64,000 nt of DNA from Thiohalobacter sp. (GCA_026984835.1 JALSRI010000178.1:10430-74429); one strand, 5' to 3'; positions 4,865 to 40,758 are shown, counted from the stretch's first letter. The notes: generated by a model from the letters alone, not told the origin. Numbers and translations: made by a program.

Positions 4865-4885
4865 TGTTTTCCTCCTTCCGTCGTA

Positions 4886-8816: not shown

Positions 8817-8912
8817 CTATCCTGTTTCTCCTGGCAGGGCTCCGGCAGCAGGGCATTGCCCCGACGGAGTACTCCCGCCAGGGTTCAGCCACGCCGGTTG
8901 GCAGCCGGGGGC

Positions 8913-13514: not shown

Positions 13515-13916
13515 ATGCTCGTTGGAATCCTGTTCATCTGGCTGGTCACGGCCTTCGGCCTGTGGATCGTCACCCTGGTGGTGCCCGGCGTCACGGCGCG
13601 TTCGACGGGCAGCCTGCTGCTGGCGGCGCTGGTGCTGGGCCTGGTCAACGCCTTCATCCGGCCGCTGCTCTGGTTGCTGACCCTGCCGCTCACGGTGCTG
13701 ACCTTCGGCCTGTTCGCGCTGGTCATCAATGCCTTCACCCTCTGGTTCACCGGCGCCGTGGTCAACGGCTTCGAGGTGCGCGATTTCGCTTCGGCGCTGC
13801 TGGCGGCGCTGGTCATGGCGCTGCTGGGCCTGGCCGGCTTCATCCTGCTGCAGTGGCTGATGATGGGCGAGGTGCACTGGATGTACATGACCGGCCGGCA
13901 AGGCGTCTACCTGTAG
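13515..13916 (+). CDS. DUF360 / phage holin 4_2 family membrane protein
   Basis: Four hydrophobic helices with FIRPLLWLLTLPLTVLTFGLF typical of the family. ATG 13515 preceded by AAGGAG. Confidence 0.6.
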   Translation: MLVGILFIWLVTAFGLWIVTLVVPGVTARSTGSLLLAALVLGLVNAFIRPLLWLLTLPLTVLTFGLFALVINAFTLWFTGAVVNGFEVRDFASALLAALVMALLGLAGFILLQWLMMGEVHWMYMTGRQGVYL

Positions 13917-13954: not shown

Positions 13955-14737
13955 TCAGGCGCGGCCGCCGCCTGCGCGGGCATGGATCAGCACGTAGCGC
14001 AGGCCGAGCAGCACCAGGAAGAGGCCGAAGAAGGCCCGCAGCCGGGCCTCCGGCAGCGCCAGCGCCAGGTGGCTGCCGACGGCGGCGCCGGCCAGTGCAC
14101 CGATGGCCAGCGGCAGCACCAGCGGCCGGCAGACATTGCCCAGCCGCCAGTTCTCCCAGCTGCCGGCCAGCGTCGCCGGCAGCCGCGCGGCCAGCGAGCA
14201 GCCCTGGGCGAGTTGCTGCGGCATGCCCAGCCCCAGCACGAACAGCGGCGCCAGCACCGGTCCGCCGCTGATGCCGACAACGCCGGCGACCAGACCCTCG
14301 ACGATGCCCACCCCGACCAGGTAGGGTGCCGACCAGGGTTCCTGTATCACCCAGCCCGCCGGCAACTGTTCCCGGAAGATCACCAGCAGGCCGCCCACTG
14401 CCACCACGGCGCCGAATTCGCGCTTGAGCGTGTCCGGCGGCAGGCGTTCCGACCAGGCCGCCGCCAGCGGCGTGACGATCATCGACGGAATGGCCACCCA
14501 CAGTACCGTCCACAGGTCGACCTGGCCGCGCAAGCCGTAGACGGCCGTGCCGGTGGCGGCCGAGAAGACCGCCACCGTGATGGCCGTGCCGCGCGCCGCC
14601 AGCGGTGCCAGTCCGGCCCAGCCCATGAGCAGCGGGATCACCAGCGTACCGCCGCCGAGACTGACCAGGCCGCCGCCGAAGCCGGCGACGAAACCGATGC
14701 CGAGACCCTTGAGCCAGGACGGGCGTTGCGGTTGCAC
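13955..14737 (-). CDS. TauE/SafE family sulfite/anion exporter
   Basis: Gly-rich polytopic protein with a two-fold internal repeat (GGGLVSLGGG, GISGGPVLAP). GTG 14737 chosen, 7 nt after the glgP stop. Confidence 0.7.
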   Translation of the reverse strand: MQPQRPSWLKGLGIGFVAGFGGGLVSLGGGTLVIPLLMGWAGLAPLAARGTAITVAVFSAATGTAVYGLRGQVDLWTVLWVAIPSMIVTPLAAAWSERLPPDTLKREFGAVVAVGGLLVIFREQLPAGWVIQEPWSAPYLVGVGIVEGLVAGVVGISGGPVLAPLFVLGLGMPQQLAQGCSLAARLPATLAGSWENWRLGNVCRPLVLPLAIGALAGAAVGSHLALALPEARLRAFFGLFLVLLGLRYVLIHARAGGGRA

Positions 14738-14744
14738 GGCGCGC

Positions 14745-17252
14745 TCAACGCTGCCAGAGAATGCGGTTGGCCTCCAGCGGCACACTGGCATGCGGGTGCG
14801 CCGGTACCACCCGCACCGTGTAGTCACGGGCCGGTCGCTGGGCGGGAATCAGGGCAGAGTAGCGGTAACCGTTCACCGCGCCGGCGAGTTCCTCCATGCG
14901 TTGCAGGGGATAGCGTTCCGGCATCGACTCCGCGTCGTGGGGGTCGGCATAGAGTTCCACGCGGACGCTGTCCGGATCCAGGTCATCGAGGTACAGCTGG
15001 ACCTCGACGCCGATCTTCAGATCGTCCTCCTCGATCACGACATTGCCGAAATGGAGGGCCGGCCAGTGCAACTCGATCTGGCGCTGCCAGTCACGGATGG
15101 CGCGGGCCAGGGCGGCGTCATCTGCCGAGCGCGCCTGCGCCGCGCGGGCCAGCGGCAGGTAGTGGGCTTCCGTGTATTCGCGCAGCATGCGGTTGGTGGA
15201 GAAGCGCGGCGTGAGCTCCGCCATGCTGCGGCGCATGTGTGCCACCCACTCCCGTGGTATGCCCTGGGCGTCGCGGTGGTAGAACAGCGGCACGATCTCC
15301 TGTTCCAGCAGCCGGTACAGGGCCTCTGCCTCTTTGGCGTCCCAGGCCGGGTCGGCGTCGTGTTCGCGGCCGTCGCCGAGGCGCCAGCCCAGCCCCGGCT
15401 GCCAGGCCTCGGCCCACCAGCCGTCCAGTTCGGACAGGTTCAGACCGCCGTTGACCAATACCTTCATGCCGCTGGTGCCGCAGGCCTCCCAGGGCCGGCG
15501 CGGGGTGTTGATCCAGACGTCGATGCCTTCCACCAGGTGACTGGCGGCGAGCAGATCGTAGTCCACCAGGAACACCGTGTGGCGTCCTAGGTCGTGGTCG
15601 CGGATGAAACTGAACCACTCACGGATCATGGCCTGGCCTTCGTGGTCCCGGGGGTGCGCCTTGCCGGCGATGACCAGTTGTACGGGTTGCTCGCTGCGCC
15701 TGAGCAGCGCCGCCAGCCGGGCCGGTTCGTGCAGCAGCAGGTTGGGTCGCTTGTAGGTGGCAAAGCGGCGCGCGAAGCCGAGGGTCAGGATGTTGGGATC
15801 GAGCAGGTCGCCCGGGCCACGGTTGGCCGGTTGTTGATAGTCCCTGCGGCGGCGCAGCCATTCGACGAGCCGCTGGCGGTTGCGGGTGCGCATTTCCCAC
15901 AGCTCGGCATCCGACACCCGGTAGATGGCGTCCTTCATTTCCTGCAGTTCGTCGCGCCAGCGGTCCTTGCTGCAGGCGGTCGTCCACAGGCGGTCCGACT
16001 CCACCGAGTCCCAGCTCGGCACGTGCACGCCGTTGGTGACGTGGCCGACCGGCACTTCAGCGTTCGGCCAGCGCGGAAACAGCGGTTCGAACAGCCGGCG
16101 GCTGACCTGGCCATGCAGGCGGCTCACGCCGTTGACGGCGGCGCTGCCGTGGATGGCCAGCCAGGCCATGTTGAAGGGCTCGTTCGCATCGTCCGGGTTG
16201 GCGCGGCCCAGGGCCAGCAACGCGTCCGGCGCCAGCCCGGCCCGTTCGCACCAGGGCGCCAGGTAGTGGCGCACCAGCCCGGGTGCGAAGCGATCGAAGC
16301 CGGCATCCACCGGCGTATGGGTGGTGAACAGGTTGCCGGCACGGGTCGCCACCAGGGCGGTGGCGAAATCCGTGTCCTGGCGTGCCTTGAAGGCGCGCGC
16401 CCGTTCCAGCACCGCGAAGGCGGCGTGGCCCTCGTTGAGATGGCAGGCCCCGGGCGTTGCCCCCAGCTGTTCCAGCAGTCGCCAGCCACCCACCCCCAGC
16501 ACCAGTTCCTGCTGCAGGCGCAGTTCCGGTCCGCCGCCATAGAGCTCGCTGGTGATGCCGCGGTCAGCGGCGTCGTTGAGCGGGTGGTTGCTGTCCAGCA
16601 GGTAAAGGCGGACCCGGCCCACCTGCACCTGCCAGACGCGCAGCAGCAGTTCGCGGCCGGGGAATTCGAGGCGGACGGTCAGCCATTCGCCGTCGGCGTT
16701 GCGCATCGGGGTCGCCGGCAGCAGGGTGGGGTCGTTGTAGGGGTAGAAGGCCAGCTGGTTGCCGTCGGCGTCCAGCGCCTGGCGAAAATAACCCTGCTGG
16801 TAGAGCAGGCCGATGGCCTGCAGCGGCACACCCAGTTCGGAGCAGGTCTTGAGATGATCGCCGGCCAGTACGCCAAGCCCGCCCGAGTACAGGGGCAGCG
16901 CCTCGCTGAGGCCATACTCCATGCAGAAATAGGCCACCGGCTCCAGTCCGCCGGCGCCGTACTTTTGTGAGAACCAGGTATCGCCGCCCAGGGCCGCCTT
17001 CTGTTCCTCGCGCAGTTCCCGCAACAGGGTGCGGAAGTCTGCATCGCCGGCCAGCGCCTGCAGCCGTCCCAGGCTGACCGTCTGCAGTATCAGCCAGGGA
17101 TTGCGGGTATGGCGCCACAGCGGTTCGTCGATGCGTCGCCACAGGGCATCGGCCACATGGCTCCAGGACCAGCGCAGGTCCAGCGCCAGCAGGCGCAGGT
17201 CTGCCAGTTCCTGCGGCAGGTCGGGGCGTGCTTCGTAGGGCATGTGATCCAT
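14745..17252 (-). CDS. glgP: alpha-glucan (glycogen/maltodextrin) phosphorylase, GT35
   Basis: 835 aa. PLP-lysine region EACGTSGMKVLVNGGLNLSELDGWW. Confidence 0.9.
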   Translation of the reverse strand: MDHMPYEARPDLPQELADLRLLALDLRWSWSHVADALWRRIDEPLWRHTRNPWLILQTVSLGRLQALAGDADFRTLLRELREEQKAALGGDTWFSQKYGAGGLEPVAYFCMEYGLSEALPLYSGGLGVLAGDHLKTCSELGVPLQAIGLLYQQGYFRQALDADGNQLAFYPYNDPTLLPATPMRNADGEWLTVRLEFPGRELLLRVWQVQVGRVRLYLLDSNHPLNDAADRGITSELYGGGPELRLQQELVLGVGGWRLLEQLGATPGACHLNEGHAAFAVLERARAFKARQDTDFATALVATRAGNLFTTHTPVDAGFDRFAPGLVRHYLAPWCERAGLAPDALLALGRANPDDANEPFNMAWLAIHGSAAVNGVSRLHGQVSRRLFEPLFPRWPNAEVPVGHVTNGVHVPSWDSVESDRLWTTACSKDRWRDELQEMKDAIYRVSDAELWEMRTRNRQRLVEWLRRRRDYQQPANRGPGDLLDPNILTLGFARRFATYKRPNLLLHEPARLAALLRRSEQPVQLVIAGKAHPRDHEGQAMIREWFSFIRDHDLGRHTVFLVDYDLLAASHLVEGIDVWINTPRRPWEACGTSGMKVLVNGGLNLSELDGWWAEAWQPGLGWRLGDGREHDADPAWDAKEAEALYRLLEQEIVPLFYHRDAQGIPREWVAHMRRSMAELTPRFSTNRMLREYTEAHYLPLARAAQARSADDAALARAIRDWQRQIELHWPALHFGNVVIEEDDLKIGVEVQLYLDDLDPDSVRVELYADPHDAESMPERYPLQRMEELAGAVNGYRYSALIPAQRPARDYTVRVVPAHPHASVPLEANRILWQR

Positions 17253-17255
17253 GGT

Positions 17256-19643
17256 TCAGTCCTGTCCGGTGTCCGGCTGCGACCACGTCCAGTCGCGGAT
17301 CTCCGGCATGTCCTCGCCGTGGGTGGTGATGTATTCGCGGTGTTCCACCAGCTTGTCGTGCAGGGCCTGGTGCAGGTGGCCGGCGCGGTCGCTGAGCGCC
17401 GGCACCCGGTCGGCCACGTCCATGACCAGGTGGAAGCGGTCCAGGTCGTTGCGCACCACCATGTCGAAGGGCGTGGTGGTGGTGCCTTCCTCCTTGTAGC
17501 CGCGCACGTGCAGGTGGTCGTGGAAGCGGCGCCGGTAGGTCAGCCGGTGGATCAGCCAGGGATAGCCGTGGAAGGCGAAGATGACCGGGATGTCGGTGCC
17601 GAACAGGGCGTCGAAATCGGCATCCGGCAGGCCGTGCGGGTGCTCCTCGTGCGGCTGCAGGGTCATGAGGTCGACCACGTTGACGACGCGGATGCGCAGT
17701 TCCGGTGCGAACGCGCGCAGCAGTTGCACCGCCGCCAGGGTCTCGATGGTGGGCACGTCGCCGCAGCAGGCCATGATCACGTCGGGCTTGCCGTCCTGGT
17801 CGTTGCTGGCCCATTCCCAGATGCCGATGCCGGCCGTGCAGTGCTTGATGGCGGCATCCATGTCCAGCCACTGTGGTTCCGGCTGCTTGCCGGCGACGAT
17901 GACGTTGACCAGGTTGCGCGACGCCAGGCACCGGTGGGTGACGTGCAGCAGGCAGTTGGCGTCCGGCGGCAGGTAGACGCGCACGATGTCGGCCTTCTTG
18001 TTGACCACGTGGTCAATGAAGCCCGGGTCCTGGTGCGAGAAGCCGTTGTGGTCCTGGCGCCAGACGTGCGAGGTGAGCAGGATGTTGAGCGAGGCGATGT
18101 CGGCGCGCCAGGGGATCTCGTTGCACACCTTGAGCCACTTGGCGTGCTGGTTGAACATGGAGTCCACGATATGGATGAAGGCCTCGTAGCAGGAGAACAG
18201 GCCGTGGCGGCCGGTCAGCAAATAGCCCTCCAGCCAGCCCTGGCAGGTGTGCTCGGACAGGATCTCCATGACGCGGCCGTCGGGTGCCAGGTGGTCGTCG
18301 TAGTCGTAGCGCTCGGCCAGCCAGGTCCGGTCGGTGACTTCCAGCAGGGCGCCGAGGCGGTTGGAGACGGTCTCGTCCGGCCCCATGATGCGGAAGTTGG
18401 CTGCTTCTTCATTCCGCTTCATGACGTCGCGCAGGTAGTCGCCCATGCGCCGCGTGGCCTCGCCCTGCGCAGCACCGGGCTGCTTCACTTCCAGTGCGTA
18501 GTCGCGGTAGTCGGGCAGGTGCAGCGGTTTCAGCAGCAGGCCGCCGTTGGCGTGCGGGTTGGCGCCCATGCGCCGTCTGCCCTGCGGCGCCAGCCCGGCG
18601 ATCTCCGGTTTGAGCCAGCCGCTGTTGTCGAACAGTTCCTCCGGCCTGTAGCTCTTCATCCAGTCTTCGAGAATCTTCAGGTGTTCGGGCCGGGTCACAT
18701 CCGGGATGGGCACCTGGTGGGCGCGCCAGTAGCCTTCCACTTTCAGGCCGTCGACCTCCCTGGGCCCGGTCCAGCCCTTGGGGGTGCGCAGGATGATCAT
18801 GGGCCAGCGCGGCAGGCGCACCTCGCCCCCCTCGCGCGCGCGCTGCTGGATGGCGCGGATGTCGGCCATCACCCGGTCGAAGACCGCCGCAAGCTGCTGG
18901 TGGACGGCCTCGGGTTCGTCGCCCGCCACCAGGTGCGGCTGATAGCCGTAGCCTTCGAACAGCCGGATCAGGTCGGCGGCGTCGATGCGCGCCAGTACCG
19001 TGGGATTGGCGATCTTGTAGCCGTTCAGGTGCAGCACCGGCAGCACGGCGCCATCGCGCGCCGGATCCAGGAACTTGTTGGAGTGCCAGGCGGTGGCCAG
19101 CGGCCCGGTCTCGGCCTCGCCGTCGCCGACCACGCACAGGGCGACCAGGTCCGGGTTGTCGAACACGGCGCCGAAGGCGTGGGCGATGGAATAGCCCAGC
19201 TCGCCGCCCTCGTGGATGGAGCCGGGCGTCTCCGGCGCGCAGTGGCTGGGCACCCCGCCGGGGAAGGAGAACTGCCGGAACAGCCGCTTCATGCCGGCCT
19301 CGTCGCGCGACACCTCCGGGTACAGCTCGCTGTAGGTGCCCTCCATCCAGGTGCTGGCCACCAGCGCCGGGCCGCCGTGGCCGGGCCCGGTGATGAAGAT
19401 GGCGTTGAGGTCGTCGCGCTTGATGATCCGGTTCATGTGCGCGTACAGCAGGTTCAGGCCGGGCGTGGTACCCCAGTGACCGAGGCGACGCGGCTTGATG
19501 TGTTCGGGCTTCAGCGGTTCCTTCAGCAGCGGGTTGTCCATGAGGAAGATCTGGCCGGCGGACAGGTAGTTGGCGGCGCGCCACCAGGCGTGCAATTGCC
19601 ATACCTCGTGCTCGTCGAGCGGGGTGTCTGGATTTCCGTTCAT
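17256..19643 (-). CDS. xfp: phosphoketolase (xylulose-5-P / fructose-6-P)
   Basis: 795 aa. N-terminus [11 protein letters not shown]...[11 protein letters not shown] and TPP-binding regions typical of Xfp. Confidence 0.95.
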
Positions 19644-22150
19644 TTCCTTTCTCCTTTTGCATCCTGGTTCTGAAGAGTTGTTGCCGGTGGAGGTGCCTTA
19701 TGCCAGGAGCTGTGCAGTGATTGCTTGAGGGTGTCCAGGAATCTGCGGTGCCGCGGGTTGTGGTGCTCAAGATGGCGGTACACATGCACCTTGACCAGGT
19801 CGGTGACGAAGGCCGAGGCCACCGAGTAGCCCCAGATCAGGGCAATCTCAGGCCAACTGATCGGCGTGATTAGGCCAAAGCCGTAGGCGGCCATCAGCGT
19901 GGCGGCCAGCTTGGTGACCACCGCAGACCAGACCATGACAGGTGCAGGCCAGGGCCGTTCCCAGAAGTGCCCCTTCGAGCGGGCGACGAACAGCACCAGG
20001 TGGCCCGCCACTGCCATCTTGAGAAAGACATAGGTCTGGACCTGGGGCGTGTCGAGTTGCAGCCAGTCCATGGCCAGCAGCAGCATGCCAAAGCTGCCGA
20101 TTATGCCCACCACGCCCATGGCGGTGGCCACGGTGATCACCTGTGACATGTTCCAGCGCACCGGCCGCGGGGACAGGCCGGTGTGGTCGTAGGCGATGGT
20201 CATGATGGGTACATCATTGAAGAAGGCCAGCAGGATGATCATGACCGCGGTGATGGGATAGAAGTCGAAGAACACCATGGCCAGGACCACGAAGAACATG
20301 ATGCGGATGGTCTCGCTGATACGGTAGATGGCATAGCTGTTCATGCGCACGAAGATGCGCCGCGCCTCCTCGATGGCGCCAATGATGACCGACAGTCCCG
20401 GTGCCGTCAGCACAAGGTCTGCCGCCGCACGGGCGGCGTCGGTGGCACCGCTGACTGCAATGCCCACGTCGGCCTGTTTCAGGGCTGGCGCATCGTTGAC
20501 ACCGTCACCGGTCATGCCGGTGATGTGGTCGCGGGCCTGCAGGATCCTGACAATGGCGAACTTGTGCTCGGGGAAGACTTCGGCAAAGCCGTCGGCCTGC
20601 TCCACCCGATCGGCCGTTGCCGGGTCTGCTGCGTTGCGATCTCCGATGGCAGGCAGCGCATCGGCGCGCAGGATGTTCGCGCCAAGCCCGAGGCGGCTGG
20701 CGATCTGCCGGGCGATGGCAAGGTTGTCGCCAGTCACCATTTTCACTCCGACACCGTAAGCCCGTGCCCGGCCGATGGTATCAGCCGAGTCCTCGCGCGG
20801 CGGGTCGAACAGCGACAGGATGCCGAGCAGGGTCCATTCCCCTCCAGCCGGCTTGCGCGCCACGGCCAGCGCACGGTAGCCCTGATCTGCGAAACGTTCC
20901 ACCACTTGTTGCGCGTGCTGGCGCTGACTGGCGTCCAGTCCGGTCATTTCGATGATGACCTGCGGTGCCCCCTTGGCCACCTGGAACCGTTGTCCGGAGC
21001 TGTCTTCCAGGGTGGCCTCGGTTCGCTTGCGCACCGGGTCGAAAGGGACGAACTCCAGTTGCCGGTAGTCATCCAGGCCGGTTTTGTTCTCCAGCCCTCT
21101 CAGCACCGCCTCGTCGATGGCATCCCGGTCTTCCTCGCGGGAGGCCAGTGCCGCCGCCAGCAGGACCTCCTGCTCGTCACTGGCCACGAAGCGCTCCACT
21201 TCGCCGAGGGTCAGCCGGTTCTGCGTCAGTGTGCCGGTCTTGTCCGAGCACAGGACATCCATGCTGGCCATTTCCTCGATTGATTCCAGGCGGGTGACGA
21301 TGGCCTTGAGCCGTGACAGCGCCACAGCACCCACGGCCATGGTCATGGACAGAACCGCCGGCATGGCGACCGGGATGGAAGCCACGGTCAGGATGAGGGC
21401 GAACTGGACCAGGTCCAGCCAGGGTGCATGGCGGTGCAGTTGTACCAGCAGCAGCAAGGTCACCAGGCCGAGGCTGACATAGATCAGGTAGTCTCCGATG
21501 GAGAGTACGGCGTTCTGAAAGTGTGATGCGGTATGGGCCTGCTGTACCAGGCCGGCGGTTTTCCCGAAGCGGGTGCGGGTGCCGGTAGCGGTCACCTCGG
21601 CCAGCACTTCGCCCTGTTTGACCACTGTGCCGGAGAAGGCGGTATCTCCGGCGCGTACGGTGACAGGCAGAGATTCGCCGGTCAGCGCCGACTGGTCGAC
21701 ACTGAGGTAGTCGCCACCGACCAGTCTGACATCGGCAGGAATCACATCACCGAGACGGATCCGGACGATATCGCCGGGCACCAGCTCCCGGGCATCGATT
21801 TCCTGCCAGAGACCGTCCCGCAATACCCGTGCCTTCAGGGCAAGTTGCTTCTTCAGCGCCTCGACCGCATTACCTGCGGTATACTCCTGCCAGAAACCGA
21901 CCAGAGCGTTGAATATCAGCAGGGCGGATATGATGCCGAGATCCGCCCAGTGTCGGGCCAGTGCCGACAGTACGGCGGCAATCTCGATCATCCAGGGAAT
22001 GGGGCCCCAGAAATAGCCCAGCAACTTGAGCAAGGGAGATATCTTTTGCTCTGCCAGGGCGTTGGGGCCGTATTGCTGCAGGCGTCGTTCGGCCTCGCGG
22101 GAATCCAGTCCCCGTGGTTGCTGCTGCGCTTGTATTGTCGCGTGGTTCAT
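19640..22150 (-). CDS. P-type ATPase, plasma-membrane proton-pump (type IIIA)-like, second copy
   Basis: [17 protein letters not shown]...[40 protein letters not shown]. 4-nt overlaps with ackA upstream and xfp downstream. Confidence 0.85.
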
Positions 22151-23358
22151 TCCTGTCTCCTGGTCTGTTCATCCCGCGGCCCGACACAGACGAGTGAATG
22201 GGTGTGTCGGGCCACGACGTGCTCCTCGTCGGTGGCAATGCGCAATACCGACACGCGGCTGTCCGGTGCGCCGATGCAGGTCGCGTTGCGGTTATTGGCG
22301 CCGGCGTCGATCATGATCCCCAGCCAGGCCGTCTGGTGGCAGATACGCTCGCGTATGGCCGGCGCGTTCTCGCCGATGCCAGCGGTGAACACCAGCGCGT
22401 CCAGGCCGCCCAGCGCGCCCGCCAGCGAGGCGATGGCACGGCTGGTGTGGTGCACGAAATAGTCCACGGCCCCGGCCGCCTCCGGGCGCGGGTTGCCCAG
22501 CAGTTCGCGCATGTCGCCGTTGCCGCCGGCCAGGCCGGCCAGGCCGCTGTGGTGGTTGAGCAGGTCGTCCACTTCGGTCACCGACAGGCCGGCCTCACGG
22601 ATGAGGTAGGTCACCACGCCCGGGTCGAGCTGGCCGGGGCGGGTGGCCATGGGCACGCCGTCCAGCGGCGTGAAGCCCATGGTGGTGGCGACGCTGCGGC
22701 CGTCGCGCAGCGCGCACAGGCTGGCGCCGTGGCCGAGGTGCGCGATGACGATCTTTCCCCCGGCCGCGGCGCCGAGATGCGCTGGCAGTACCGACGCGAT
22801 GTATTCGTAGGACAGGCCATGGAAGCCGTAGCGGCGGATGCCGCGGTCGAACCAGTGGCGGGGCAGGGCATAGCGCTGCTCGTTGGGCGGCATGCTGCAG
22901 TGGAAGGCGGTATCGAAGCAGGCCACCTGGGGCAGGTCGGGATTGAGCCTGCGCAGCGCCTCGATGGCGGCCAGGTTGTGCGGCATGTGCAGCGGCGCCA
23001 GCGGCACGAAGGCGCGCAGCGCGTCGAGTATGTCCGCGTCGATGCGCACCGGCCGGTCGAAGCGGTGGCCGCCGTGTACCACGCGGTGGCCGGCGGCGGC
23101 CAGCTCGCCGTAGTCGGCCTGTCGTCCGAGCCAGTCCAGCAGCCGGTCGAGGGCCCGTTCGTGGTCGGCGACCGCCGCGGGTTCGTCCAGCAGCGGCTTG
23201 CTGCCGGCGTCGAAGACCCGGAAGCGCGCCGCCGCGCCGAGACCCTGGAACCGGCCATGGCAGCGGCGCAGCGGTTCCCGCCCGCTTGTGCTGAACAAGG
23301 CGAACTTGAGGCTCGAGGAGCCGGCGTTGAGTACCAGAATGGAATCAGCCCGGGCCAC
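22147..23358 (-). CDS. ackA: acetate kinase
   Basis: ILVLNAGSSSLKF N-terminus; 403 aa ASKHA fold pattern. Confidence 0.9.
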   Translation of the reverse strand: MARADSILVLNAGSSSLKFALFSTSGREPLRRCHGRFQGLGAAARFRVFDAGSKPLLDEPAAVADHERALDRLLDWLGRQADYGELAAAGHRVVHGGHRFDRPVRIDADILDALRAFVPLAPLHMPHNLAAIEALRRLNPDLPQVACFDTAFHCSMPPNEQRYALPRHWFDRGIRRYGFHGLSYEYIASVLPAHLGAAAGGKIVIAHLGHGASLCALRDGRSVATTMGFTPLDGVPMATRPGQLDPGVVTYLIREAGLSVTEVDDLLNHHSGLAGLAGGNGDMRELLGNPRPEAAGAVDYFVHHTSRAIASLAGALGGLDALVFTAGIGENAPAIRERICHQTAWLGIMIDAGANNRNATCIGAPDSRVSVLRIATDEEHVVARHTHSLVCVGPRDEQTRRQE

Positions 23359-23365
23359 GGGGACG

Positions 23366-24766
23366 CTACAGCTCGAACACGTCGTTCAGGCCGGGCATGT
23401 GTACCCGGGTGTCCTGAAGGTGGCTGGCGAAATGCCGCATCACCTCTTCCTCGCCGTGTACCAGGATGCAGTGCTCGGGGCCGCCGGTCTGGCGGTACCA
23501 GGCCAGCAGTTCGTCGCGGTCGGCGTGCGCGGAAAAACCGCCTATGGTATAGAGGCGGGCCCGTACCGGAATGTCCTCGTGGAAGATCCGCACCTTGTCG
23601 GCGCCGTCGATGATGCGCCGCGCCAGGGTGCCGCGCGCCGCGTAGCCGACGAAGATGACGCTGGAATCATCGCGCCACAGGTTGTGGCGCAGGTGGTGGC
23701 GCACGCGGCCGCCGGTGCACATGCCGGAGCCGGCCATGATGACGGCACCGCCGCCGATGTTGTTCAGCGCGATGGACTGGGCGGTCTCGCGGGTGAAGTG
23801 CAGGCCCGGCAGCGAGAAGGGGTCGTTGCCTTCCCGGAACAGTTCGGCAGTCCGGGCGTCGTAGCATTCCGGGTGGCGCTCGAAGATCCGGGTGGCGGAG
23901 ATGGCCATGGGGGAATCCAGGAACACCTGCATGCTGGCCGGCAGCCGGCCCTGATCCACGCCTTCGTGCAGGAAGTAGAGGATCTCCTGGGCGCGTTCCA
24001 GGGCGAAAGTGGGGATGATCACGTTGCCGCCGCGGCGGAACGTGTCCTCGATGCCGCTGTAGAGTTCCTCGATGGAGGGCTTGAGCTGCTTGTGCAGGCG
24101 GTCGCCGTAGGTGGTCTCCATGACCACCACGTCGGCGTGCGGCGGCGTGGCCGGGTCGCGCAGCAGGGCGCGGCCGGAGTAGCCGAGGTCGCCCGAGAAC
24201 AGCACGCTGCGGCGACGGCCGCCTTCCTCCAGCTCCAGGAAGATACTGGCCGAGCCCAGGATGTGGCCGGCGTCGAGGAAGGTGGCGCGGATGCCGGGAG
24301 CGATCTCCAGCGGACTGCCGTAGACGGCGCTGCGGCCGAAGAACTCCATGCCGTTCAAGGCATCGAGCAGGTTGTACAGGGGGTCGACTTCCCGTTGCGG
24401 GTGGTGGTGGCCGTGTGCGCGCCGGGCCTTGCGCGACTGGTACTCGGCTTCTTCCTCCTGCAGGTGGGCAGCGTCGAGCATGACCAGGCGTGCCAGCTCG
24501 CGGCTGGCCGCGGTGGTGATGATTTCGCCCTGGAAGCCGCGTTTGGCCAGCAGCGGTATGCGGCCGCAGTGGTCGAGGTGGGCGTGGGTGAGCAGCAGGT
24601 AGTCGATGTCGGCCGGCTCGAAGCCGAAGGGTGCCGCGTTTTCCTCGGCCAGTTCGCGGCCGCCCTGATACAGGCCGCAGTCGATGAGGATACGCTTGCC
24701 ATTGCATTCCAGCAGGTGACAGGAGCCGGTGACTTCGTGGTCGGCGCCGTGGAAGGAGATTTTCAT
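23366..24766 (-). CDS. MBL-fold metallo-hydrolase with beta-CASP / RNA-specificity domain
   Basis: HAHLDHCG motif, then beta-CASP-type motifs and a C-terminal FSAHAD. ATG 24766 (MKISFHGA) chosen because the upstream extension is Arg/Ser-rich junk. Confidence 0.8.
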   Translation of the reverse strand: MKISFHGADHEVTGSCHLLECNGKRILIDCGLYQGGRELAEENAAPFGFEPADIDYLLLTHAHLDHCGRIPLLAKRGFQGEIITTAASRELARLVMLDAAHLQEEEAEYQSRKARRAHGHHHPQREVDPLYNLLDALNGMEFFGRSAVYGSPLEIAPGIRATFLDAGHILGSASIFLELEEGGRRRSVLFSGDLGYSGRALLRDPATPPHADVVVMETTYGDRLHKQLKPSIEELYSGIEDTFRRGGNVIIPTFALERAQEILYFLHEGVDQGRLPASMQVFLDSPMAISATRIFERHPECYDARTAELFREGNDPFSLPGLHFTRETAQSIALNNIGGGAVIMAGSGMCTGGRVRHHLRHNLWRDDSSVIFVGYAARGTLARRIIDGADKVRIFHEDIPVRARLYTIGGFSAHADRDELLAWYRQTGGPEHCILVHGEEEVMRHFASHLQDTRVHMPGLNDVFEL

Positions 24767-24794
24767 GGTCTGTTGTTCCTCGTCGTGCAGGGGG

Positions 24795-25757
24795 TCAATC
24801 GAACAGCGGGGTTCCGTTGGCCTGGTGCCAGCGCTGGATGCCTTCCCAGGCGTCCAGCGCCGATTCCGCGAACCAGAACAAGTCCCGGTCCTCGTCGTCG
24901 ATGACGCCTTCCGCGGCGAGGAAGTCAAAGTCGACGACGCGTCGCCAGTAGGCCTCGCCCATCAGCACCACCGGCAGTGGCTTTATCTTGCGTGTCTGAA
25001 TCAGTGTCAGCGTCTCGAACAACTCGTCCAGGGTTCCGTAGCCACCGGGGAAGGCGACCAGCGCACGGGCGCGCAGCAGGAAGTGCAGCTTGCGCAGGGC
25101 AAAGTAATGGAATCGGAAGCACAGCCCGGGGGTGAGATAGGGATTGGGAAACTGTTCGTGGGGCAGGGTGATGTTGAGGCCGATGGTCTTGGCGCCCGCT
25201 TCCCAGGCGCCGCGGTTGGCCGCTTCCATCATGCCGGGCCCTCCGCCGGTCATCAGCACCACGCGCGAATCCTGTGGGCCGCTGCCGCTGTCGCCCACCA
25301 GGCGGCCGAACTCCCGGGCGATGTCGTAGAAACGGCTCTTGTCGAGAATGCGCCGGGCGATATCCAACTGACGTTTGAGCGCGGCGTCGGCGGGGCTGGC
25401 CTGCAGCGCCCGTTCGAGTTCCTTTACCCTGCGGCGCGCCATGGCCGGTTCGTGAATGCGGGTGCCGCCGAACACGACGATGGTGTGGCGGATACTGTGC
25501 TGTTCCAGCAGCAGTTCCGGCTTGCTGTAGTCGAGTTGCAGGCGGACTCCGCGGGTGGCGCCCTGGCGCAGAAAGTCGATATCCGCGTCGGCTGGCCGGT
25601 AGGACGGGTTTTCCATGAGTGCCTGCACCCGGTCATGGGCGCCGGCATCGTCCTCGATTGCCTTGGGCGTCTGCCAGGGAAGCTTCTCGTGGCGTCGGAT
25701 CGGGTGGGGTGGCGGCGGTATCGACAGATCGTCCCGCGGTGGTGGCTGCTTGCTCAA
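24795..25757 (-). CDS. LOG / TIGR00730 family Rossmann protein (nucleotide 5'-monophosphate nucleosidase-like)
   Basis: GGGPGMMEAANRGA and PGGYGTLDELFE motifs. Candidate TTG start at 25757 overlaps the pta stop (TTGA); the alternative is ATG at 25616. Confidence 0.75.
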   Translation of the reverse strand: MSKQPPPRDDLSIPPPPHPIRRHEKLPWQTPKAIEDDAGAHDRVQALMENPSYRPADADIDFLRQGATRGVRLQLDYSKPELLLEQHSIRHTIVVFGGTRIHEPAMARRRVKELERALQASPADAALKRQLDIARRILDKSRFYDIAREFGRLVGDSGSGPQDSRVVLMTGGGPGMMEAANRGAWEAGAKTIGLNITLPHEQFPNPYLTPGLCFRFHYFALRKLHFLLRARALVAFPGGYGTLDELFETLTLIQTRKIKPLPVVLMGEAYWRRVVDFDFLAAEGVIDDEDRDLFWFAESALDAWEGIQRWHQANGTPLFD

Positions 25758-26707
25758 GCTCGTTCCTCCCCCTCGTGATGCATGATCACGGCCAGTGCCG
25801 CCGCAGCCAGCCGCGCGACCGGCGGGTCGGACCGTGAGGGTAGCATGATGGGAACCCGTGCGCCGACCACGATGCCGGCCAGGGTGGCGCCGGCCAGGTA
25901 CTCCAGGTCCTTGGCGAGGATGTTGGCGGCATTCAGGTCCGGCGCCAGCAGGATGTCCACGTCGCCGGACACCGGACTGTCGATGTGCTTGATGTGGGCC
26001 GCTTCCGCCGAAATGGCGTTGTCGAAGGCCAGCGGGCCGTCGACGACGGCGTGCAGGATCTGACCGCGCTCGGCCATCTTGCTCAGGCAGGCGGCGTCGA
26101 TGGTGGAGGCGATGGCGGGCTTGACTACCTCCACGGCGGACAGGGCGGCCACCTTGGGGCGTTCGACGCCCAGCAGGCGTGCCAAGTCGATGGCGTTGCG
26201 CAGGATGTCGGCCTTGATGGCCAGATCGGGGGCGATGTTGATGGCGGCGTCGGTGATGAACAGCAGCTTGTCGTAGCTCGGCAGTTCGGTCACGAACACG
26301 TGGCTGACCCGCTTGCCGGTCCGCAGTCCGGCCAGTACCGGATGCATCAGGGCGTCGGTGTGGATCCAGCCCTTGGCCAGCGCCGCGACTTCGCCGCGCT
26401 GAGCCAGTTCGACGCCCAGGCGCGCGGCTTCCTGCTCCGTATCGGCCGCGATCAGGCGCTGCGCGTCGAGGGAGCGCCCCAGCGTCCCACACAGGGCGCG
26501 GACGCGCCGAGGGTCGCCAATCAGTACCGGTTCCACCAGGCCGGCATCATGGGCCTCCATCATGCCCTGCAGGACGTGACTTTCCTCGGCGTTGACGACG
26601 GCGACGGGGATGGGGCCGTAGCGGCGGGCCCGCTCCAGGTAGGCCTGCAGCCGCGGGCAGGCCCGGGCAGCGGCCGGAGTGGCTGGTTCCCGTGGCGGAG
26701 CGGACAC
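25754..26707 (-). CDS. pta: phosphate acetyl/butyryl transferase family protein
   Basis: PTA_PTB-like sequence (ITDAAINIAP, DGPLAFDNA, LLAPDLNAANILAK). GTG 26707 lies 2 nt after the ppsA stop. Confidence 0.8.
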   Translation of the reverse strand: MSAPPREPATPAAARACPRLQAYLERARRYGPIPVAVVNAEESHVLQGMMEAHDAGLVEPVLIGDPRRVRALCGTLGRSLDAQRLIAADTEQEAARLGVELAQRGEVAALAKGWIHTDALMHPVLAGLRTGKRVSHVFVTELPSYDKLLFITDAAINIAPDLAIKADILRNAIDLARLLGVERPKVAALSAVEVVKPAIASTIDAACLSKMAERGQILHAVVDGPLAFDNAISAEAAHIKHIDSPVSGDVDILLAPDLNAANILAKDLEYLAGATLAGIVVGARVPIMLPSRSDPPVARLAAAALAVIMHHEGEERA

Positions 26708-26709
26708 GA

Positions 26710-29166
26710 TCAGGTGTCCCCGGGCCCTTGCTTCGCGGTCTGCAGGCGTGCTTCCGCCTCCACCACGCGGCGCAGGGTGGCAAGCACGGTGTCCGGATTG
26801 AGGCTGATGGAGTCGATACCGATACCGACCAGGTATTCCGCCACCTCGGGGTAGTCCGAGGGCGCCTGGCCACAGATGCCGCTGTGGCGCCGGTTGCGGC
26901 GGCAACCCTCGACTGCCCAGCGGATCATCTTCAACACACCGGGGTCGCGTTCGTCGTAGTCGAAGGCCAGGATCTCGCTGTCACGGTCCACGCCCAGGGT
27001 GAGCTGGGTGAGGTCGTTGGAACCGATGCTGAAGCCGTCGAACAGTTCACTGAATTCGTCGATCTCGACCACGTTGTTGGGTATCTCGCACATCACGTAG
27101 ATCTTCAGGCCATTGTCGCCGCGTACCAGGCCGTGTGCAGCCATGCTGTCGATGACCTTGCGACCCTCCGGTACGCGCCGGCAGAAGGGGATCATCAGGA
27201 TGATGTTGTCCATGCCGATCACTTCGCGGGCGCGCTTCATGGCGGCGCACTCGAGGGCGAAGCCGTCGGCATAGTCCGGATGCGTGTAGCGGGCCGCACC
27301 GCGGAAACCGATCATCGGGTTGTCCTCGACCGGTTCGAAGGTCTTGCCGCCCAGCAGGGTGGCGTACTCGTTGGTCTTGAAATCACTCATGCGCACCACG
27401 CATGGCCGTGGCCACACCGACGCGGCCAGGGTGGCCACCCCCTCGGAAAGGGTCTTGACGAAAAAATCGACCGGGTCGTCGTAGGCAGCGCTAAGGACGC
27501 CCAGCGCCTCGCGGGTCCGGGCATCGACGCGGTCCGGGTGCCTGAGTGCCATCGGGTGCGCCTTGATGTATTCATTGATGATGAATTCCATGCGCGCCAG
27601 GCCGATGCCGTCCACCGGCAGGGCGGCCAGGCTGAAGGCCTGGTCAGGGTCGCCGAGGTTCATCATGATCCTGGTCATCGGTCGCGGCAGCTCGCCGAGA
27701 TCGGTCTCCTCGATGTCGTAGTCGAGGATGCCTTCGTAGACCTTGCCGGTCTCGCCCTCGGCGCAGCTGACGGTGACCGGCTGACCGTCGCCAAGCACCC
27801 TGGTGGCGTCCTCGGCGCCCACCACGGCGGGAATGCCGAGCTCACGCGAGACGATAGCAGCGTGACAGGTGCGCCCGCCGCGGTTGGTGACGATGGCGGC
27901 AGCGGTCTTCATCACCGGCTCCCAGTCCGGGGTGGTGGTGTCGGCCACCAGCACCTCGCCGGGCCGGAAATCGGCGAGATGGCCGACGTCGGCGATGACG
28001 TGCACCTTGCCGGCGCCGATGCGGGTGCCGACGGCCCGGCCCTGGACCAGCACACGGGATCTCGCCTTGAGGTGATAGAGGCGCAGTATGCTGTCCTTCT
28101 TCTGGGACTCCACCGTCTCCGGGCGCGCCTGCACCATGTAGAGCTGGCCGTCGATGCCGTCCCTGGCCCATTCCATGTCCATGGGTTTGTGGAAACCGGC
28201 CTGGCGGGAATAGTGCTTCTCGATCTTGATGGCGTAGTCGGCCAGCACCATGACATCGTCGTCCGAAATGCAGAAACGCGCGCGTTCTGTGGGCGTGGTG
28301 TCGATATTGCGTGTGTACTCGACGGCGATGTTGTCCGTGTTGAGGGTGTCGGTGAACACCATTTTCTGCTCTTTGGCGCCGAGCCTGCGCTTGAGTACCG
28401 CCCGGCAGCCTTTCTCGAAGGTGGGCTTGTGCACGTAGAAGCTGTCCGGATCGATGGTGCCCTGGACCACGTTCTCGCCCAGCCCCAGCGCCGCGTTGAT
28501 GAACACCACGTCGCGGAAGCCGGTTTCGGTGTCCAGCGAGAACATGACGCCGCTGGCGCCCTGGTCGCTGCGGACCATCTTCATGACGACGACACACAGG
28601 TAGACCCTGTAGTAGTCGAATCGGTTGTCGTACTTGTAATGAATGGAGCGGTCGGTGAAATTGGAGGCCAGGCAGCGCTTGTAGGCGTCGAGCAGGGCGT
28701 CGTCTCCGCTGATGTGCAGGTAGGTATCGTTCTGGCCAGCGAACGAGGCTTCGGGCGAGTCTTCCGCTGTCGCCGAGGAACGCACCGCCAGTGACACGTC
28801 GTCGCCGTATTCCTGCCTGAGCCGCGCGTACTGGGCAAGGATGTCCGCTTTCAGATCGTCGGGCAGGGTGCAGCCATAGACGATCTCCCGGGCCCTGGCG
28901 CCGCGCGTCTGCAGGTCCCTGACATCGTCGGGATCGAGCCCGTCCAGTGCCTGGTGCAGCCTCGGCCAGGCCTCGTTGGCATCCAGCACATAACGGTAGG
29001 CCGCGGCGGTTACCGCGAATCCATTGGGAACGCGAACGCCTTCGCTGGTGAGATTGCGGTACATCTCCCCCAGGCTGGCGTTCTTGCCGCCCACCTCGGG
29101 GATGTCGTCGATACCGATTTCGCCGAACCAGCGAGTATAGGCTGGCCTGTCTTTTGTCGCTGCCAT
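26710..29166 (-). CDS. ppsA: phosphoenolpyruvate synthase (pyruvate, water dikinase)
   Basis: 818 aa. N-terminus GGKNASLGEM, phosphohistidine loop GGRTCHAAIVSRELGIPAVVG, C-terminal PEP-utilising domain. Confidence 0.95.
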   Translation of the reverse strand: MAATKDRPAYTRWFGEIGIDDIPEVGGKNASLGEMYRNLTSEGVRVPNGFAVTAAAYRYVLDANEAWPRLHQALDGLDPDDVRDLQTRGARAREIVYGCTLPDDLKADILAQYARLRQEYGDDVSLAVRSSATAEDSPEASFAGQNDTYLHISGDDALLDAYKRCLASNFTDRSIHYKYDNRFDYYRVYLCVVVMKMVRSDQGASGVMFSLDTETGFRDVVFINAALGLGENVVQGTIDPDSFYVHKPTFEKGCRAVLKRRLGAKEQKMVFTDTLNTDNIAVEYTRNIDTTPTERARFCISDDDVMVLADYAIKIEKHYSRQAGFHKPMDMEWARDGIDGQLYMVQARPETVESQKKDSILRLYHLKARSRVLVQGRAVGTRIGAGKVHVIADVGHLADFRPGEVLVADTTTPDWEPVMKTAAAIVTNRGGRTCHAAIVSRELGIPAVVGAEDATRVLGDGQPVTVSCAEGETGKVYEGILDYDIEETDLGELPRPMTRIMMNLGDPDQAFSLAALPVDGIGLARMEFIINEYIKAHPMALRHPDRVDARTREALGVLSAAYDDPVDFFVKTLSEGVATLAASVWPRPCVVRMSDFKTNEYATLLGGKTFEPVEDNPMIGFRGAARYTHPDYADGFALECAAMKRAREVIGMDNIILMIPFCRRVPEGRKVIDSMAAHGLVRGDNGLKIYVMCEIPNNVVEIDEFSELFDGFSIGSNDLTQLTLGVDRDSEILAFDYDERDPGVLKMIRWAVEGCRRNRRHSGICGQAPSDYPEVAEYLVGIGIDSISLNPDTVLATLRRVVEAEARLQTAKQGPGDT

Positions 29167-29225
29167 GGTTCTTTCCTTGCCATGTGGTTGGTAGGCCGGC
29201 GCAGACGTTCCGGGGGATACGAACC

Positions 29226-29266
29226 ATTCTAGCGCATACGCCGCCGCGTGCCTTGATGCGGATCAA
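29226..29266 (-). promoter_or_regulatory. FNR/CRP-family box (TTGATgcggATCAA, 29253-29266) plus -10-like TAGAAT (29231-29226) upstream of ppsA
   Basis: Perfect 14-bp palindrome. Its centre is about 40.5 bp upstream of the start site implied by the -10 hexamer. ppsA ATG is at 29166. Confidence 0.6.
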
Positions 29267-29361
29267 CGGCAGGCCGAGGGGGCCGGCTTCGCTCCAGGAA
29301 TCATGCTGTCTTCGCCTTGCGCAGGGCGATGCCTGGCTGCGCGCTGCCGTCGAACAGTACC

Positions 29362-29400
29362 GCCAGCACCGGTCCGGCGTAGCCGAAGGCCGGTGCTGGC
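29362..29400 (-). terminator. long hairpin after yfdX (11-bp perfect stem GCCAGCACCGG / CCGGTGCTGGC)
   Basis: Starts 11 nt past the yfdX stop, between yfdX and the ppsA promoter. No clear U-tract, so an intrinsic terminator function is uncertain. Confidence 0.4.
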
Positions 29401-29410
29401 GCCAGCTGCC

Positions 29411-30320
29411 TCAGCGATTTTTGATCCACTGGCCGATACGGTCCCACCAGCCCTCGATGGTGGCGCCCGCACCCTTGTCCTTCTTGCCTTTCTTGAGTTC
29501 GTCGGACAGGGTTCTCATCTCCTTTTGCAATTGGGCGATGGCCTTCTTCTCGTCCTCGCCGGCCTTCCTCGCATAGGCGTCCAGCTCCCGCTTCGCCGCC
29601 GCCAGCGCCGCGCGGGCTTCCTCGTTGTCACCCTTGTCGATGGCGGCCTTGGCCAGCATCAGGTTGTCGCGGGCGCGCTCCAGCGGCAAGGTCACGTCCA
29701 GCTCGACGAAATACAGGCCCTGCGACACCGATGCCAGCGCCTGGTCGGCGCCCTTGGTGTCGTTCTTGGCCAGCCGCGTCGCCGCCAGGTCCAGTGCATC
29801 GCTGGCCAGGCCGACGTCGAACAGGATCTGCACGTCCCGCAATTCGTCGTTCGCCACGATCTCGGCGCCCGGGGCACCGGTGGCCCGGCCAGCCCGGCGC
29901 CGCGCAGCCATGGCCCGGTGCAGCGGGGTGAGCAGCGATACTTCATCCAGTTCGTCGAAGACGGGCACCAGGGTATCCTTGACCTCGTCCTCGTCCTCGT
30001 AGTTCAGCTCGCCGGCCGTGATCTTTGCCTTGACATGGTAGACGGGTTCCGCCTTTGCGATGATGGCGGCCAGCTTGCGGGCCTTGGCGATCTCCGCGGC
30101 GGCCTGCTTGCTGTCCTTGTGTTTCAGCGCCGTTCGGGCATTGTAGGTGTGGCGCAGCAGGCGCCCCGCGGCGATGGAGACGGCGCGCTGCTCGGCCGGT
30201 GTCAATGTATGTTCGGCCCGGGTGTCGATCTTGGCCGCGATGCGGGGTGTGGCCAGTACGGGGCCGGTGCCGAGGGCGAGCGCCAGGATCACGGCGCTGG
30301 TGAGATGGGTCTTGTGCATG
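29411..30320 (-). CDS. YfdX family periplasmic protein
   Basis: Signal peptide (AVILALALGTGPVLA). Helical repeats with AKxxL/ARxAL patterns and a Lys-rich C-terminus typical of YfdX. ATG 30320. Confidence 0.6.
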
Positions 30321-37302: not shown

Positions 37303-37896
37303 ATGGATCTCCACGCACTGGTGTACAGCACCTCGCCGCAGTGGTCGCAGTTCGGTCTGCCGCTCGTGTTCGCGGGCGCCCTGCTGGAGGGGGAAACGGT
37401 GGTGCTGCTGGCGGGGGTGCTCTGCCATCGCGGGCTTCTGCCGCTGGAGTGGACGGTCGTGCTGGCGGCTGCCGGTGCCTTCACGGGAGACCAGACCTGG
37501 TTTCATCTGGGGCGCCGCTACGGTCTGCGTGCCCTGTCCCGTTTTCCATGGCTGGCGCGACGCGCAGCGCAGGTGCGGCCCTGGGTCGAACAGCGCGCCG
37601 ACTGGATCGCCGCCACGTCGCGTTTCGTCTACGGGACCCGCACCGTGGCGCCGTTGCTGCTGGGCATGCACGGTTATCCGTCCCCGCGTTTCCTCCTCGT
37701 CAATTCGTTCAGCGCGCTGCTGTGGGCCGTCGCGGTGGTCGGCGCCGGTTACCTCGTCGGTGCGGGTGCCGAACAGCTGTTCGGGCGTGTCCGCCACATC
37801 GAGCAGCTGCTGCTGGTGGTCGGTGGGCTCATGCTGCTGCGCTGGTGGCTGCGGCGCAGGGAGACCGGCGGTTCTTCCAGTGAGGGCGGCAAATGA
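37303..37896 (+). CDS. DedA family membrane protein
   Basis: GETVVLLAGVL, GDQTWFHLGRRYG and YGTRTVAP motifs typical of the SNARE-associated/DedA family. Confidence 0.75.
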   Translation: MDLHALVYSTSPQWSQFGLPLVFAGALLEGETVVLLAGVLCHRGLLPLEWTVVLAAAGAFTGDQTWFHLGRRYGLRALSRFPWLARRAAQVRPWVEQRADWIAATSRFVYGTRTVAPLLLGMHGYPSPRFLLVNSFSALLWAVAVVGAGYLVGAGAEQLFGRVRHIEQLLLVVGGLMLLRWWLRRRETGGSSSEGGK

Positions 37897-40632: not shown

Positions 40633-40758
40633 ACTGCCCTCCATGAACGGGTACCGACCGGCTGTCAGTGACCCACGGCCCCACGGCCCAACGGGCCACG
40701 ACAATCGTGTCGAAGTTGATAAATTGGGGCTGGCTGCAGGAATGTCAAGCCCGGCCGA

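Follow-up and report, generated by a model that had tools for sequence, protein, structure and literature searches.

A nine-gene operon behind an FNR-type box as a candidate low-oxygen survival unit with glycogen phosphorylase, phosphoketolase, acetate kinase and a P3A proton pump

How strictly respiring bacteria keep up their ATP, pH and membrane potential without oxygen is only partly understood. The question is raised by a 64,000-nucleotide stretch of DNA from Thiohalobacter sp. (GCA_026984835.1, JALSRI010000178.1:10430-74429; hereafter the window), in which nine consecutive minus-strand genes at 13955-29166 lie behind a perfect FNR-type box. In operon order they are ppsA, pta, a LOG-family gene, a beta-CASP ribonuclease (RNase) gene, ackA, a gene for a type IIIA (P3A) P-type H+-ATPase, xfp, glgP and tauE. 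Do these genes form one unit, and what would such a unit do? Our reading, to which we give a probability of about 0.5, is that they form an operon for survival under low oxygen or energy limitation, in an uncultured, high-GC host that is an aerobically respiring proteobacterium, probably a gammaproteobacterium. Fuel release by GlgP, NADH-free ATP from Xfp plus AckA and an ATP-driven proton pump, placed under one oxygen-type switch, would make a complete and testable survival circuit.

The window is part of a 148-kb contig of a short-read metagenome assembly (k141_134518 in ENA ERZ27262647). Gene boundaries were taken from the gene calls of that contig and gene identities from Pfam and NCBIfam profile cut-offs. 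The nine genes, with product lengths in amino acids (aa) from these independent gene calls, are as follows.

26710-29166, minus strand: ppsA, phosphoenolpyruvate (PEP) synthase, 818 aa, the first gene (Pfam PPDK_N, PEP-utilizers and PEP-utilizers_C; NCBIfam equivalog NF005057, 1103.9 bits against a cut-off of 598).
25754-26707, minus strand: pta, a short Pta/Ptb-type phosphate acetyl/butyryl-transferase, 317 aa, GTG start (PF01515; NF006045, 393.7 bits against 282; PRK11890, 359.9 against 413).
24795-25757, minus strand: LOG-family (type II LOG-like) nucleotide phosphoribohydrolase, 320 aa, TTG start in a TTGA overlap with pta (PF03641; TIGR00730, 88.7 bits, slightly below the cut-off of 96.35).
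23366-24766, minus strand: beta-CASP ribonuclease of the metallo-beta-lactamase fold, 466 aa (Pfam Lactamase_B, Beta-Casp and RMMBL).
22147-23358, minus strand: ackA, acetate/propionate kinase, 403 aa (PF00871, E = 2e-107; TIGR00016, 349 bits against 293.4).
19640-22150, minus strand: type IIIA (P3A) P-type H+-ATPase, 836 aa, with ATGA overlaps to both ackA and xfp (TIGR01647, 991.8 bits against 615.5).
17256-19643, minus strand: xfp, xylulose-5-phosphate/fructose-6-phosphate phosphoketolase, 795 aa (Pfam XFP_N, XFP and XFP_C; NF003619, 1473.6 bits against 962).
14745-17252, minus strand: glgP-type alpha-glucan phosphorylase of the DUF3417 class, 835 aa (PF11897 and PF00343; TIGR02094, 773.4 bits against 191.7).
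13955-14737, minus strand: tauE, TauE/SafE (TSUP) family anion permease, 260 aa, the last gene (PF01925; gene calls).

Recomputed in operon order, the junctions measure 2, -4, 28, 7, -4, -4, 3 and 7 nt, where negative values are overlaps, and the three overlaps are of the ATGA/TTGA start-stop type. A preliminary description, made from the sequence alone, had listed the same nine genes in the same order at the same coordinates and with identical gaps, and had placed a perfect FNR-type box ahead of ppsA; the gene calls, Pfam and NCBIfam matched it throughout, and the box too was confirmed.

The signals at the 5' end of the cluster are these.

29253-29266, no strand assigned: FNR/Anr/FixK-type palindrome TTGATGCGGATCAA (pattern scan of the window).
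29226-29231, minus strand: candidate -10 hexamer TAGAAT (reading of the sequence).
29346-29415, minus strand: strong stem-loop right behind the stop codon (29411) of an upstream yfdX-like gene (RNA fold -46.8 kcal/mol, z = -3.77).

The palindrome is a perfect TTGAT-N4-ATCAA and the sole perfect match within the 64 kb. With up to one mismatch allowed the window has 4 matches where 0.24 would be expected. None of 100 shuffles has as many as 4, which puts the box far above chance. The TAGAAT hexamer places the centre of the box about 40.5-41.5 nt upstream of the transcription start that it implies, a spacing that would correspond to class II FNR/Anr geometry. None of 200 shuffles was as stable as the hairpin on the yfdX side, which keeps that gene apart from the FNR promoter and is probably a terminator or insulator at the 5' boundary of the operon. 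The 3' boundary is given by a 133-aa gene convergent on tauE (13515-13916, plus strand), which ends 38 nt from the tauE stop; RNA folding found no stable hairpin after tauE. Of internal promoters or terminators, which the preliminary description had named as counter-evidence, the scans gave no clear sign: no minus-strand sigma-70-consensus promoter was found inside the cluster by consensus search, and the 12 terminator-like matches do not exceed shuffle expectation (7.5 +/- 3.3) and so give no evidence of subdivision. Rfam and tRNA scans of the whole window were empty, so no riboswitch or leader RNA is indicated. Since the cluster shows neither a consensus promoter of its own inside nor more terminators than shuffles do, and boundary signals lie at the ends, a single transcription unit is the simplest reading of the sequence.

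Could such an arrangement be accidental? The sequence does come from a short-read metagenome assembly, and either a chimeric contig or a random same-strand run with a fortuitous AT-rich palindrome would be an explanation without biology. We consider this extremely improbable, however, given that composition is uniform across the region (GC 0.63-0.70, in a window of about 68% GC), that the box is so far above chance, that RNase-ackA-ATPase-xfp is also present, at 75-93% protein identity, on a contig assembled independently from a different sample, and that similar arrays are found in many loci.

As to what the unit would do, a CRP/FNR-family activator at 29253-29266 probably drives an mRNA of about 15.3 kb that carries all nine genes, partly translationally coupled. 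When respiration fails, GlgP would phosphorolyse stored glycogen, and Xfp would cleave fructose-6-phosphate or xylulose-5-phosphate to acetyl-phosphate without NADH, a cleavage that would for this reason suit an aerobe without fermentative electron sinks. AckA would convert acetyl-phosphate to ATP and acetate, Pta would link acetyl-phosphate to acetyl-CoA, and PpsA would have its place between PEP and pyruvate, where it may run from AMP to ATP (PEP + AMP + Pi -> pyruvate + ATP), as the Thermococcus enzyme reportedly does. The P3A ATPase would spend part of the ATP, moving one proton out per ATP, and would so hold cytoplasmic pH and membrane potential against acetic acid. The beta-CASP RNase and the LOG protein may feed ribose-5-phosphate into the phosphoketolase route, and TauE would export an anion. 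What the sequence shows directly are family-level gene identities, spacing, the box and the repeated proximity of these families in other genomes; the oxygen signal, the single transcript, the direction of flux, proton pumping and the roles of PpsA, LOG, RNase and TauE are what we infer from it.

The gene content of the window is consistent with this scheme. Xfp and AckA are bona fide members above their cut-offs, and a transaldolase and a class I aldolase are present, which together provide the genes by which the phosphoketolase-acetate kinase (XPK-ACK) route, or bifid shunt, is recognized. The window also encodes feoAB, two universal stress proteins (USPs), dPGM, enolase and glgB. The last three, with transaldolase and class I aldolase, are enzymes that the glycogen-phosphoketolase route needs, and glgB argues that glycogen is made, just as the caa3 oxidase assembly genes in the window argue for an aerobic respirer. 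No transketolase or epimerase was seen in the window.

The same genes could also belong to carbon-storage cycling, by analogy with glycogen- or polyphosphate-accumulating bacteria under anaerobic feast conditions. AckA and Pta would then activate imported acetate to acetyl-CoA, PpsA would serve gluconeogenesis, GlgP would provide ATP and carbon, and the pump would restore the proton-motive force spent on acetate uptake. AckA, Pta and PpsA are indeed reversible or gluconeogenic by established biochemistry; the window encodes PPK2, glgB and two further P-type ATPases; and PPK2 adjoins P3A genes in loci L005, L008, L041 and L079. Phosphoketolase, however, in effect runs one way only, to acetyl-phosphate, and plays no part in assimilating acetate, and no genes for polyhydroxyalkanoate synthesis or acetate permease were seen among the gene calls of the window. 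Moreover, for xfp together with ackA in non-fermenters, the one physiological precedent that turned up in print is ATP generation: Synechococcus elongatus PCC 7942 uses XPK-ACK to make ATP for dark anaerobic survival (PMC10365998, citing Chuang and Liao 2021). Storage cycling therefore seems to us a poor bet, although not a negligible one.

The 836-aa ATPase passes the TIGR01647 equivalog cut-off, as the preliminary label of type IIIA-like would predict, while the next family model, for IIIB Mg transporters, gives 385 bits against a cut-off of 610.75. Its closest structural relative is the Arabidopsis pump AHA2 (5KSD, E = 7e-197), followed by fungal Pma1 (E ~1e-178). In the alignment to AHA2 the phosphorylation motif DKTGT is kept, as are the equivalents of N106, R655 and D684, the second of these in the segment ETIRIMF and the third in FFNDVPIMT. 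According to a 2023 review (PMC10654040), the Asp in transmembrane helix (TM) 6 is the proton acceptor and donor, its partners are an Arg in TM5 and an Asn in TM2, and P3A stoichiometry is one proton per ATP. By sequence, then, the protein is classed as a true type IIIA family member that has the proton-binding Asn, Arg and Asp. Only about 48 residues lie past the last aligned helix, so there is no regulatory tail of the plant or fungal type. By established thermodynamics, a pump that moves one proton per ATP can hold a gradient steeper than that within reach of a reversed F1Fo ATPase, which works at 3-4 protons per ATP.

More than 8000 homologues of the pump were scored, many of them in Gammaproteobacteria genome bins at 75-87% identity, so the pump that the preliminary description called eukaryote-like is no rarity: bacteria have many P3A ATPases. 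Genome bins of Desulfobulbaceae and Pirellulales hold copies that are 76-79% identical (P0033; loci L006-L008), and the ATPase gene has the lowest GC content at third codon positions (GC3) in the operon, 0.78 against 0.80-0.93. These two observations suggest horizontal mobility of the pump gene, and the distribution suggests that bacterial P3A genes have been transferred across phyla.

Is the association of the pump with the other eight families more than local? Two sets of related loci were compared. One was anchored on the ATPase and comprised 80 loci, one genome per species, of which the 69 of at least 8 kb served for a partner count that includes PPK2. The other was anchored on the RNase and comprised metagenome contigs L088-L167, among which 34 loci are at least 8 kb long and 56 have room upstream. 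At least one further family of the nine accompanies the ATPase in 15 of the 80 loci, or a partner in 17 of 69 when PPK2 is counted, and an energy or ATPase partner lies near the RNase in 16 of 34. The arrangements are varied. ATPase-xfp-glgP-ackA is found in L028, ATPase-ppsA-LOG-ackA in L016, PPK2-ATPase-ppsA-LOG-RNase-tauE in Acidihalobacter (L041), ATPase-ackA-xfp in a Chloroflexia bin (L020) and glgP-ATPase in Desulfobulbaceae (L006, L008). In L169, ppsA overlaps the ATPase gene, and genes for VTT and class I aldolase come after the pump. Among cultured bacteria, Mangrovitalea sediminis, Acidihalobacter and Thiomonas sp. FB-6, for example, carry similar clusters. Another organism in the same metagenome (L086, contig k141_40441) has a P3A ATPase-PfkB pair that converges on CPA2 antiporter-glgP-xfp-small ORF-beta-CASP RNase, so the module occurs in more than one member of the community.

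Conservation of the nine-gene order itself, which the preliminary description had proposed as a check, was not found among 160 related loci. The best were L089, where ppsA-LOG-RNase-ackA-xfp-glgP is followed by the start of a P3A gene (seven of nine families, in one direction), and a four-gene stretch in the closest relative (L168, a short contig from a sister sample), whose RNase-ackA-ATPase-xfp stand in the same order with 93, 75, 87 and 92% protein identity. The same families do recur in unrelated genomes, and the gene set is therefore a recurring neighborhood with shuffled order. This recurrence, together with the XPK-ACK precedent (PMC10365998), speaks for the functional link that had been proposed, and the interpretation as a whole is partly supported.

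Boxes of the same type were seen upstream of some of these relatives. A perfect FNR box lies about 200 nt upstream of the pump gene in L036, perfect boxes lie upstream of LOG-RNase in L120 and L136, and a one-mismatch box is conserved in the divergent ppsA/LOG region of L092-L094, which are probably from related organisms. In Methylothermaceae B42 a Crp/FNR-type regulator gene is divergent from ppsA-DUF308-ATPase.

A number of points weigh against the survival-operon reading. A reversed F1Fo ATPase could do the same job as the pump; the classical role of PpsA is in gluconeogenesis, and AckA-Pta can also work towards acetate activation. The organism is known from a metagenome only. No gene for an FNR/Anr (CRP/FNR-family) regulator is present among the gene calls and Pfam matches of the 64-kb window, and the box type is common to FNR, Anr, Dnr and FixK, so that the signal could be nitric oxide or a FixLJ cascade rather than oxygen directly. 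Among ppsA orthologues, upstream boxes with at most one mismatch occur only in L092-L094, and FNR control as a rule for the P3A family as a whole was rejected, with boxes (at most one mismatch, within 350 nt upstream) in 3 of 85 loci against a background of 1.3% (p ~0.10). Because overall enrichment upstream of P3A genes is not significant, this box type would be a lineage-specific control and not a universal one. Gene order is variable, and 65 of the 80 ATPase-anchored loci have no partner within reach. Finally, for prokaryotic P3A ATPases the 2023 review describes the transport function as undetermined, and it assigns these pumps chiefly to methanogenic archaea (PMC10654040).

The last two points also favor an explanation without mechanistic coupling, in which the locus would be a hypoxia or stationary-phase island, possibly with internal promoters, whose genes have independent functions and whose ATP is not dedicated to the pump. 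The pump would then serve acid or ion homeostasis, perhaps with a cation other than H+, and RNase and LOG would do RNA and nucleotide housekeeping. The literature does discuss the pump as an acid-resistance gene of acidophiles, and its low GC3 and close matches in Desulfobulbaceae and Pirellulales suggest that it moves independently. On the other hand, ATGA overlaps flank the ATPase gene on both sides and the order is kept in the closest relative, which argues that the pump is co-expressed with ackA and xfp; loci of other lineages have ppsA, glgP, ackA or the RNase gene immediately beside the pump gene or overlapping it; and the proton-binding Asn, Arg and Asp are conserved. We judge an uncoupled island unlikely, yet it is to be taken seriously.

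For the LOG and RNase genes, the preliminary calls (LOG family, beta-CASP metallo-beta-lactamase) agree with the best structural matches. The closest structure to the beta-CASP protein is the T. thermophilus beta-CASP RNase TTHA0252 (E = 4.7e-93), and those to the LOG protein are type II LOG phosphoribohydrolases and TT1465 (E ~1e-36); the LOG translation carries PGGYGTLDE, a PGGxGTxxE motif. Two other identities were considered and rejected. Cas14 of type VII CRISPR systems was dismissed for the beta-CASP protein (NF045584, 374 bits against a cut-off of 800), whose closest structure is the RNase above, and the nucleotide 5'-monophosphate nucleosidase PpnN was dismissed for the LOG protein (NF038390, 19.3 bits against 450), which resembles type II LOG instead. 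Where there is room upstream, LOG is followed by a directly adjacent beta-CASP RNase gene in 24 of 56 metagenome loci (among L088-L167), which range from 38% to 71% GC. We know of no described joint function for this pair. The two proteins probably trim RNA and nucleotide pools. More speculatively, they might release ribose-5-phosphate from RNA and nucleotides for the phosphoketolase route, an idea that draws on the strong conservation of the pair and on "pentose turnover" as a class of genes that low oxygen induces in Burkholderia cenocepacia, both within the lxa locus and beyond it (PMC3721108).

Elsewhere in the window (51834-54362, minus strand) there is a 505-aa protein similar to archaeal-type thymidine phosphorylase, which scores 502.5 bits against the AMP phosphorylase equivalog cut-off of 535, and its gene is followed by one for a PRK07199-type ribose-phosphate diphosphokinase. 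The two may form a salvage path from nucleotides to ribose-phosphate, which would match the pentose theme of the LOG-RNase pair.

How new is the system? The closest known counterpart is the lxa locus of B. cenocepacia J2315 (Sass et al. 2013, PMC3721108), which is induced by low oxygen, has an Anr-like motif and is needed for anoxic persistence. Its host is likewise an aerobe, and it shares ackA, pta/ptb, a LOG "lysine decarboxylase", a metal-dependent RNase, a cation ATPase and USPs with our region, a match at the level of families only; an Anr/FNR-like motif with a TGA-N6-TCA core lies upstream of lxa genes (PMC3721108). Phosphoketolase has 0 occurrences in that paper, the subtype of the lxa cation ATPase is not given there, and searches of its text gave no glycogen phosphorylase or PEP synthase among the lxa genes. 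Whereas lxa is an island of about 50 genes in multiple operons, the set here is condensed into a single operon of nine genes that includes xfp, glgP, ppsA and a P3A pump.

The Anr regulon of Pseudomonas aeruginosa has the same box type, TTGAT-N4-ATCAA. In that species ackA-pta supports survival by anaerobic pyruvate fermentation. PMC8575079 tabulates as low-oxygen-responsive the phosphoketolase PA3613, the adjacent PA3614, annotated as a metallo-beta-lactamase, and the P-type ATPase PA1429; the likeness of PA3614 and PA1429 is at the level of annotation (metallo-beta-lactamase and P-type ATPase). Unlike the genes studied here, the P. aeruginosa genes are spread over several loci and, as far as the available part of the source goes, those units have no glycogen phosphorylase or PpsA. 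In Synechococcus, control is allosteric (ATP inhibits XPK) rather than through an FNR-type promoter, and the available part of PMC10365998 reports no linked P3A pump, RNase, LOG or PpsA. The DosR regulon of Mycobacterium tuberculosis resembles our region as an aerobe's hypoxia regulon with a P-type ATPase, CtpF, and USPs (PMC6879984 and PMC3721108), but its regulator is DosR and not a CRP/FNR protein, CtpF is a P2A Ca2+ pump, and there is no phosphoketolase route. With the plasma-membrane pumps AHA2 and Pma1 the operon pump shares a family, by the TIGR01647 cut-off, and with AHA2, its closest structural match, also DKTGT and the proton-path residues; it differs in being bacterial, operon-encoded and free of the plant or fungal tail.

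No operon of xfp, glgP and P3A genes, or such an operon under FNR, was described in the literature searched, which omits most subscription journals. Even so, with the lxa families, the three P. aeruginosa genes and the abundance of bacterial P3A pumps in view, the novelty claimed in the preliminary description was overstated. The kind of system is already known; what appears new is that the genes are packed into a single operon with translational coupling, and that P3A pumps recur as partners of phosphoketolase, acetate kinase, glycogen phosphorylase and PpsA. To specialists in anaerobic regulation the operon would come as no surprise. Its value lies rather in a testable role for P3A ATPases and in the unexplained LOG-RNase pair, whose strong conservation points to a connection of RNA or nucleotide turnover with energy metabolism under anoxia.

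P3A pumps are abundant in bacteria and lie repeatedly beside fermentative ATP genes, which suggests a concrete role that can be tested. A broader proposal, which we hold to be doubtful, is that bacterial P3A pumps are the dedicated membrane energizer and pH-stat of a widespread, horizontally mobile module for anoxic survival, one that would burn glycogen through redox-neutral phosphoketolase to acetyl-phosphate and ATP and may also burn RNA-derived ribose-5-phosphate from the beta-CASP RNase and LOG pair. If true, this would give prokaryotic P3A ATPases their first physiological role, and it would suggest that the plasma-membrane pump of plants and fungi originally served to keep up pH and membrane potential on substrate-level ATP.

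On the tauE side of the nine genes lies a further group of genes in the same direction.

4025-13404, minus strand: neighboring unit with an FtsH paralogue, a second P3A ATPase (867 aa; TIGR01647, 895.8 bits), a CPA2 antiporter, a P2A Ca-type ATPase (895 aa) and PPK2 (TIGR03709); boundaries from gene calls.

This unit is probably a separate transcript. The gene of the second P3A paralogue (8913-11516, minus strand) overlaps the end of the extra FtsH gene (11497-13404, minus strand) by 20 nt. In 6 of 80 metagenome loci, a homologue of the 867-aa pump is the neighbor of the beta-CASP RNase. L162 and L163 have an FtsH homologue close to their RNase gene, in L162 with a perfect FNR box upstream of FtsH.

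Other boxes of the FNR type occur in the window, three of them at plausible sites, which counts in favor of the survival reading. A one-mismatch box, TTGATATCGATCAG, at 7708-7721 is contained in the 3' end of the CPA2 antiporter gene and precedes by about 135 nt the P2A Ca-type ATPase gene (4886-7573, minus strand), which is followed by PPK2 (4025-4864, minus strand). By analogy with DosR-controlled CtpF, it may be an internal low-oxygen promoter. Another one-mismatch box, TTGATATGGATCAG, at 617-630 stands upstream of a cluster of small genes (about 718-4007, plus strand) that leads into feoA-feoB, and fits with FNR control of ferrous iron uptake. A symmetric variant, TTGACCCAGGTCAA, at 48710-48723 is located 63 nt upstream of a USP gene (48207-48647, minus strand), and two boxes with two mismatches lie at 47550-47578, between a DUF1451-peptidase M90-transaldolase unit and a divergent gene for a 167-aa protein.

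The convergent 133-aa gene beyond tauE matches Pfam Phage_holin_4_2, which raised the idea of a prophage; this was rejected, as there are no phage genes nearby and no NCBIfam match, and the gene probably encodes a small membrane protein. At 39442-40704, a 420-aa ORF has no database record, and its start codon probably differs from the one assumed. The window has a region rich in stress genes (37893-40704, 61045-63234), in which genes for a PLD-type cardiolipin synthase-like protein, a cyclopropane-fatty-acid synthase-like protein and DedA/VTT are found with glgB.

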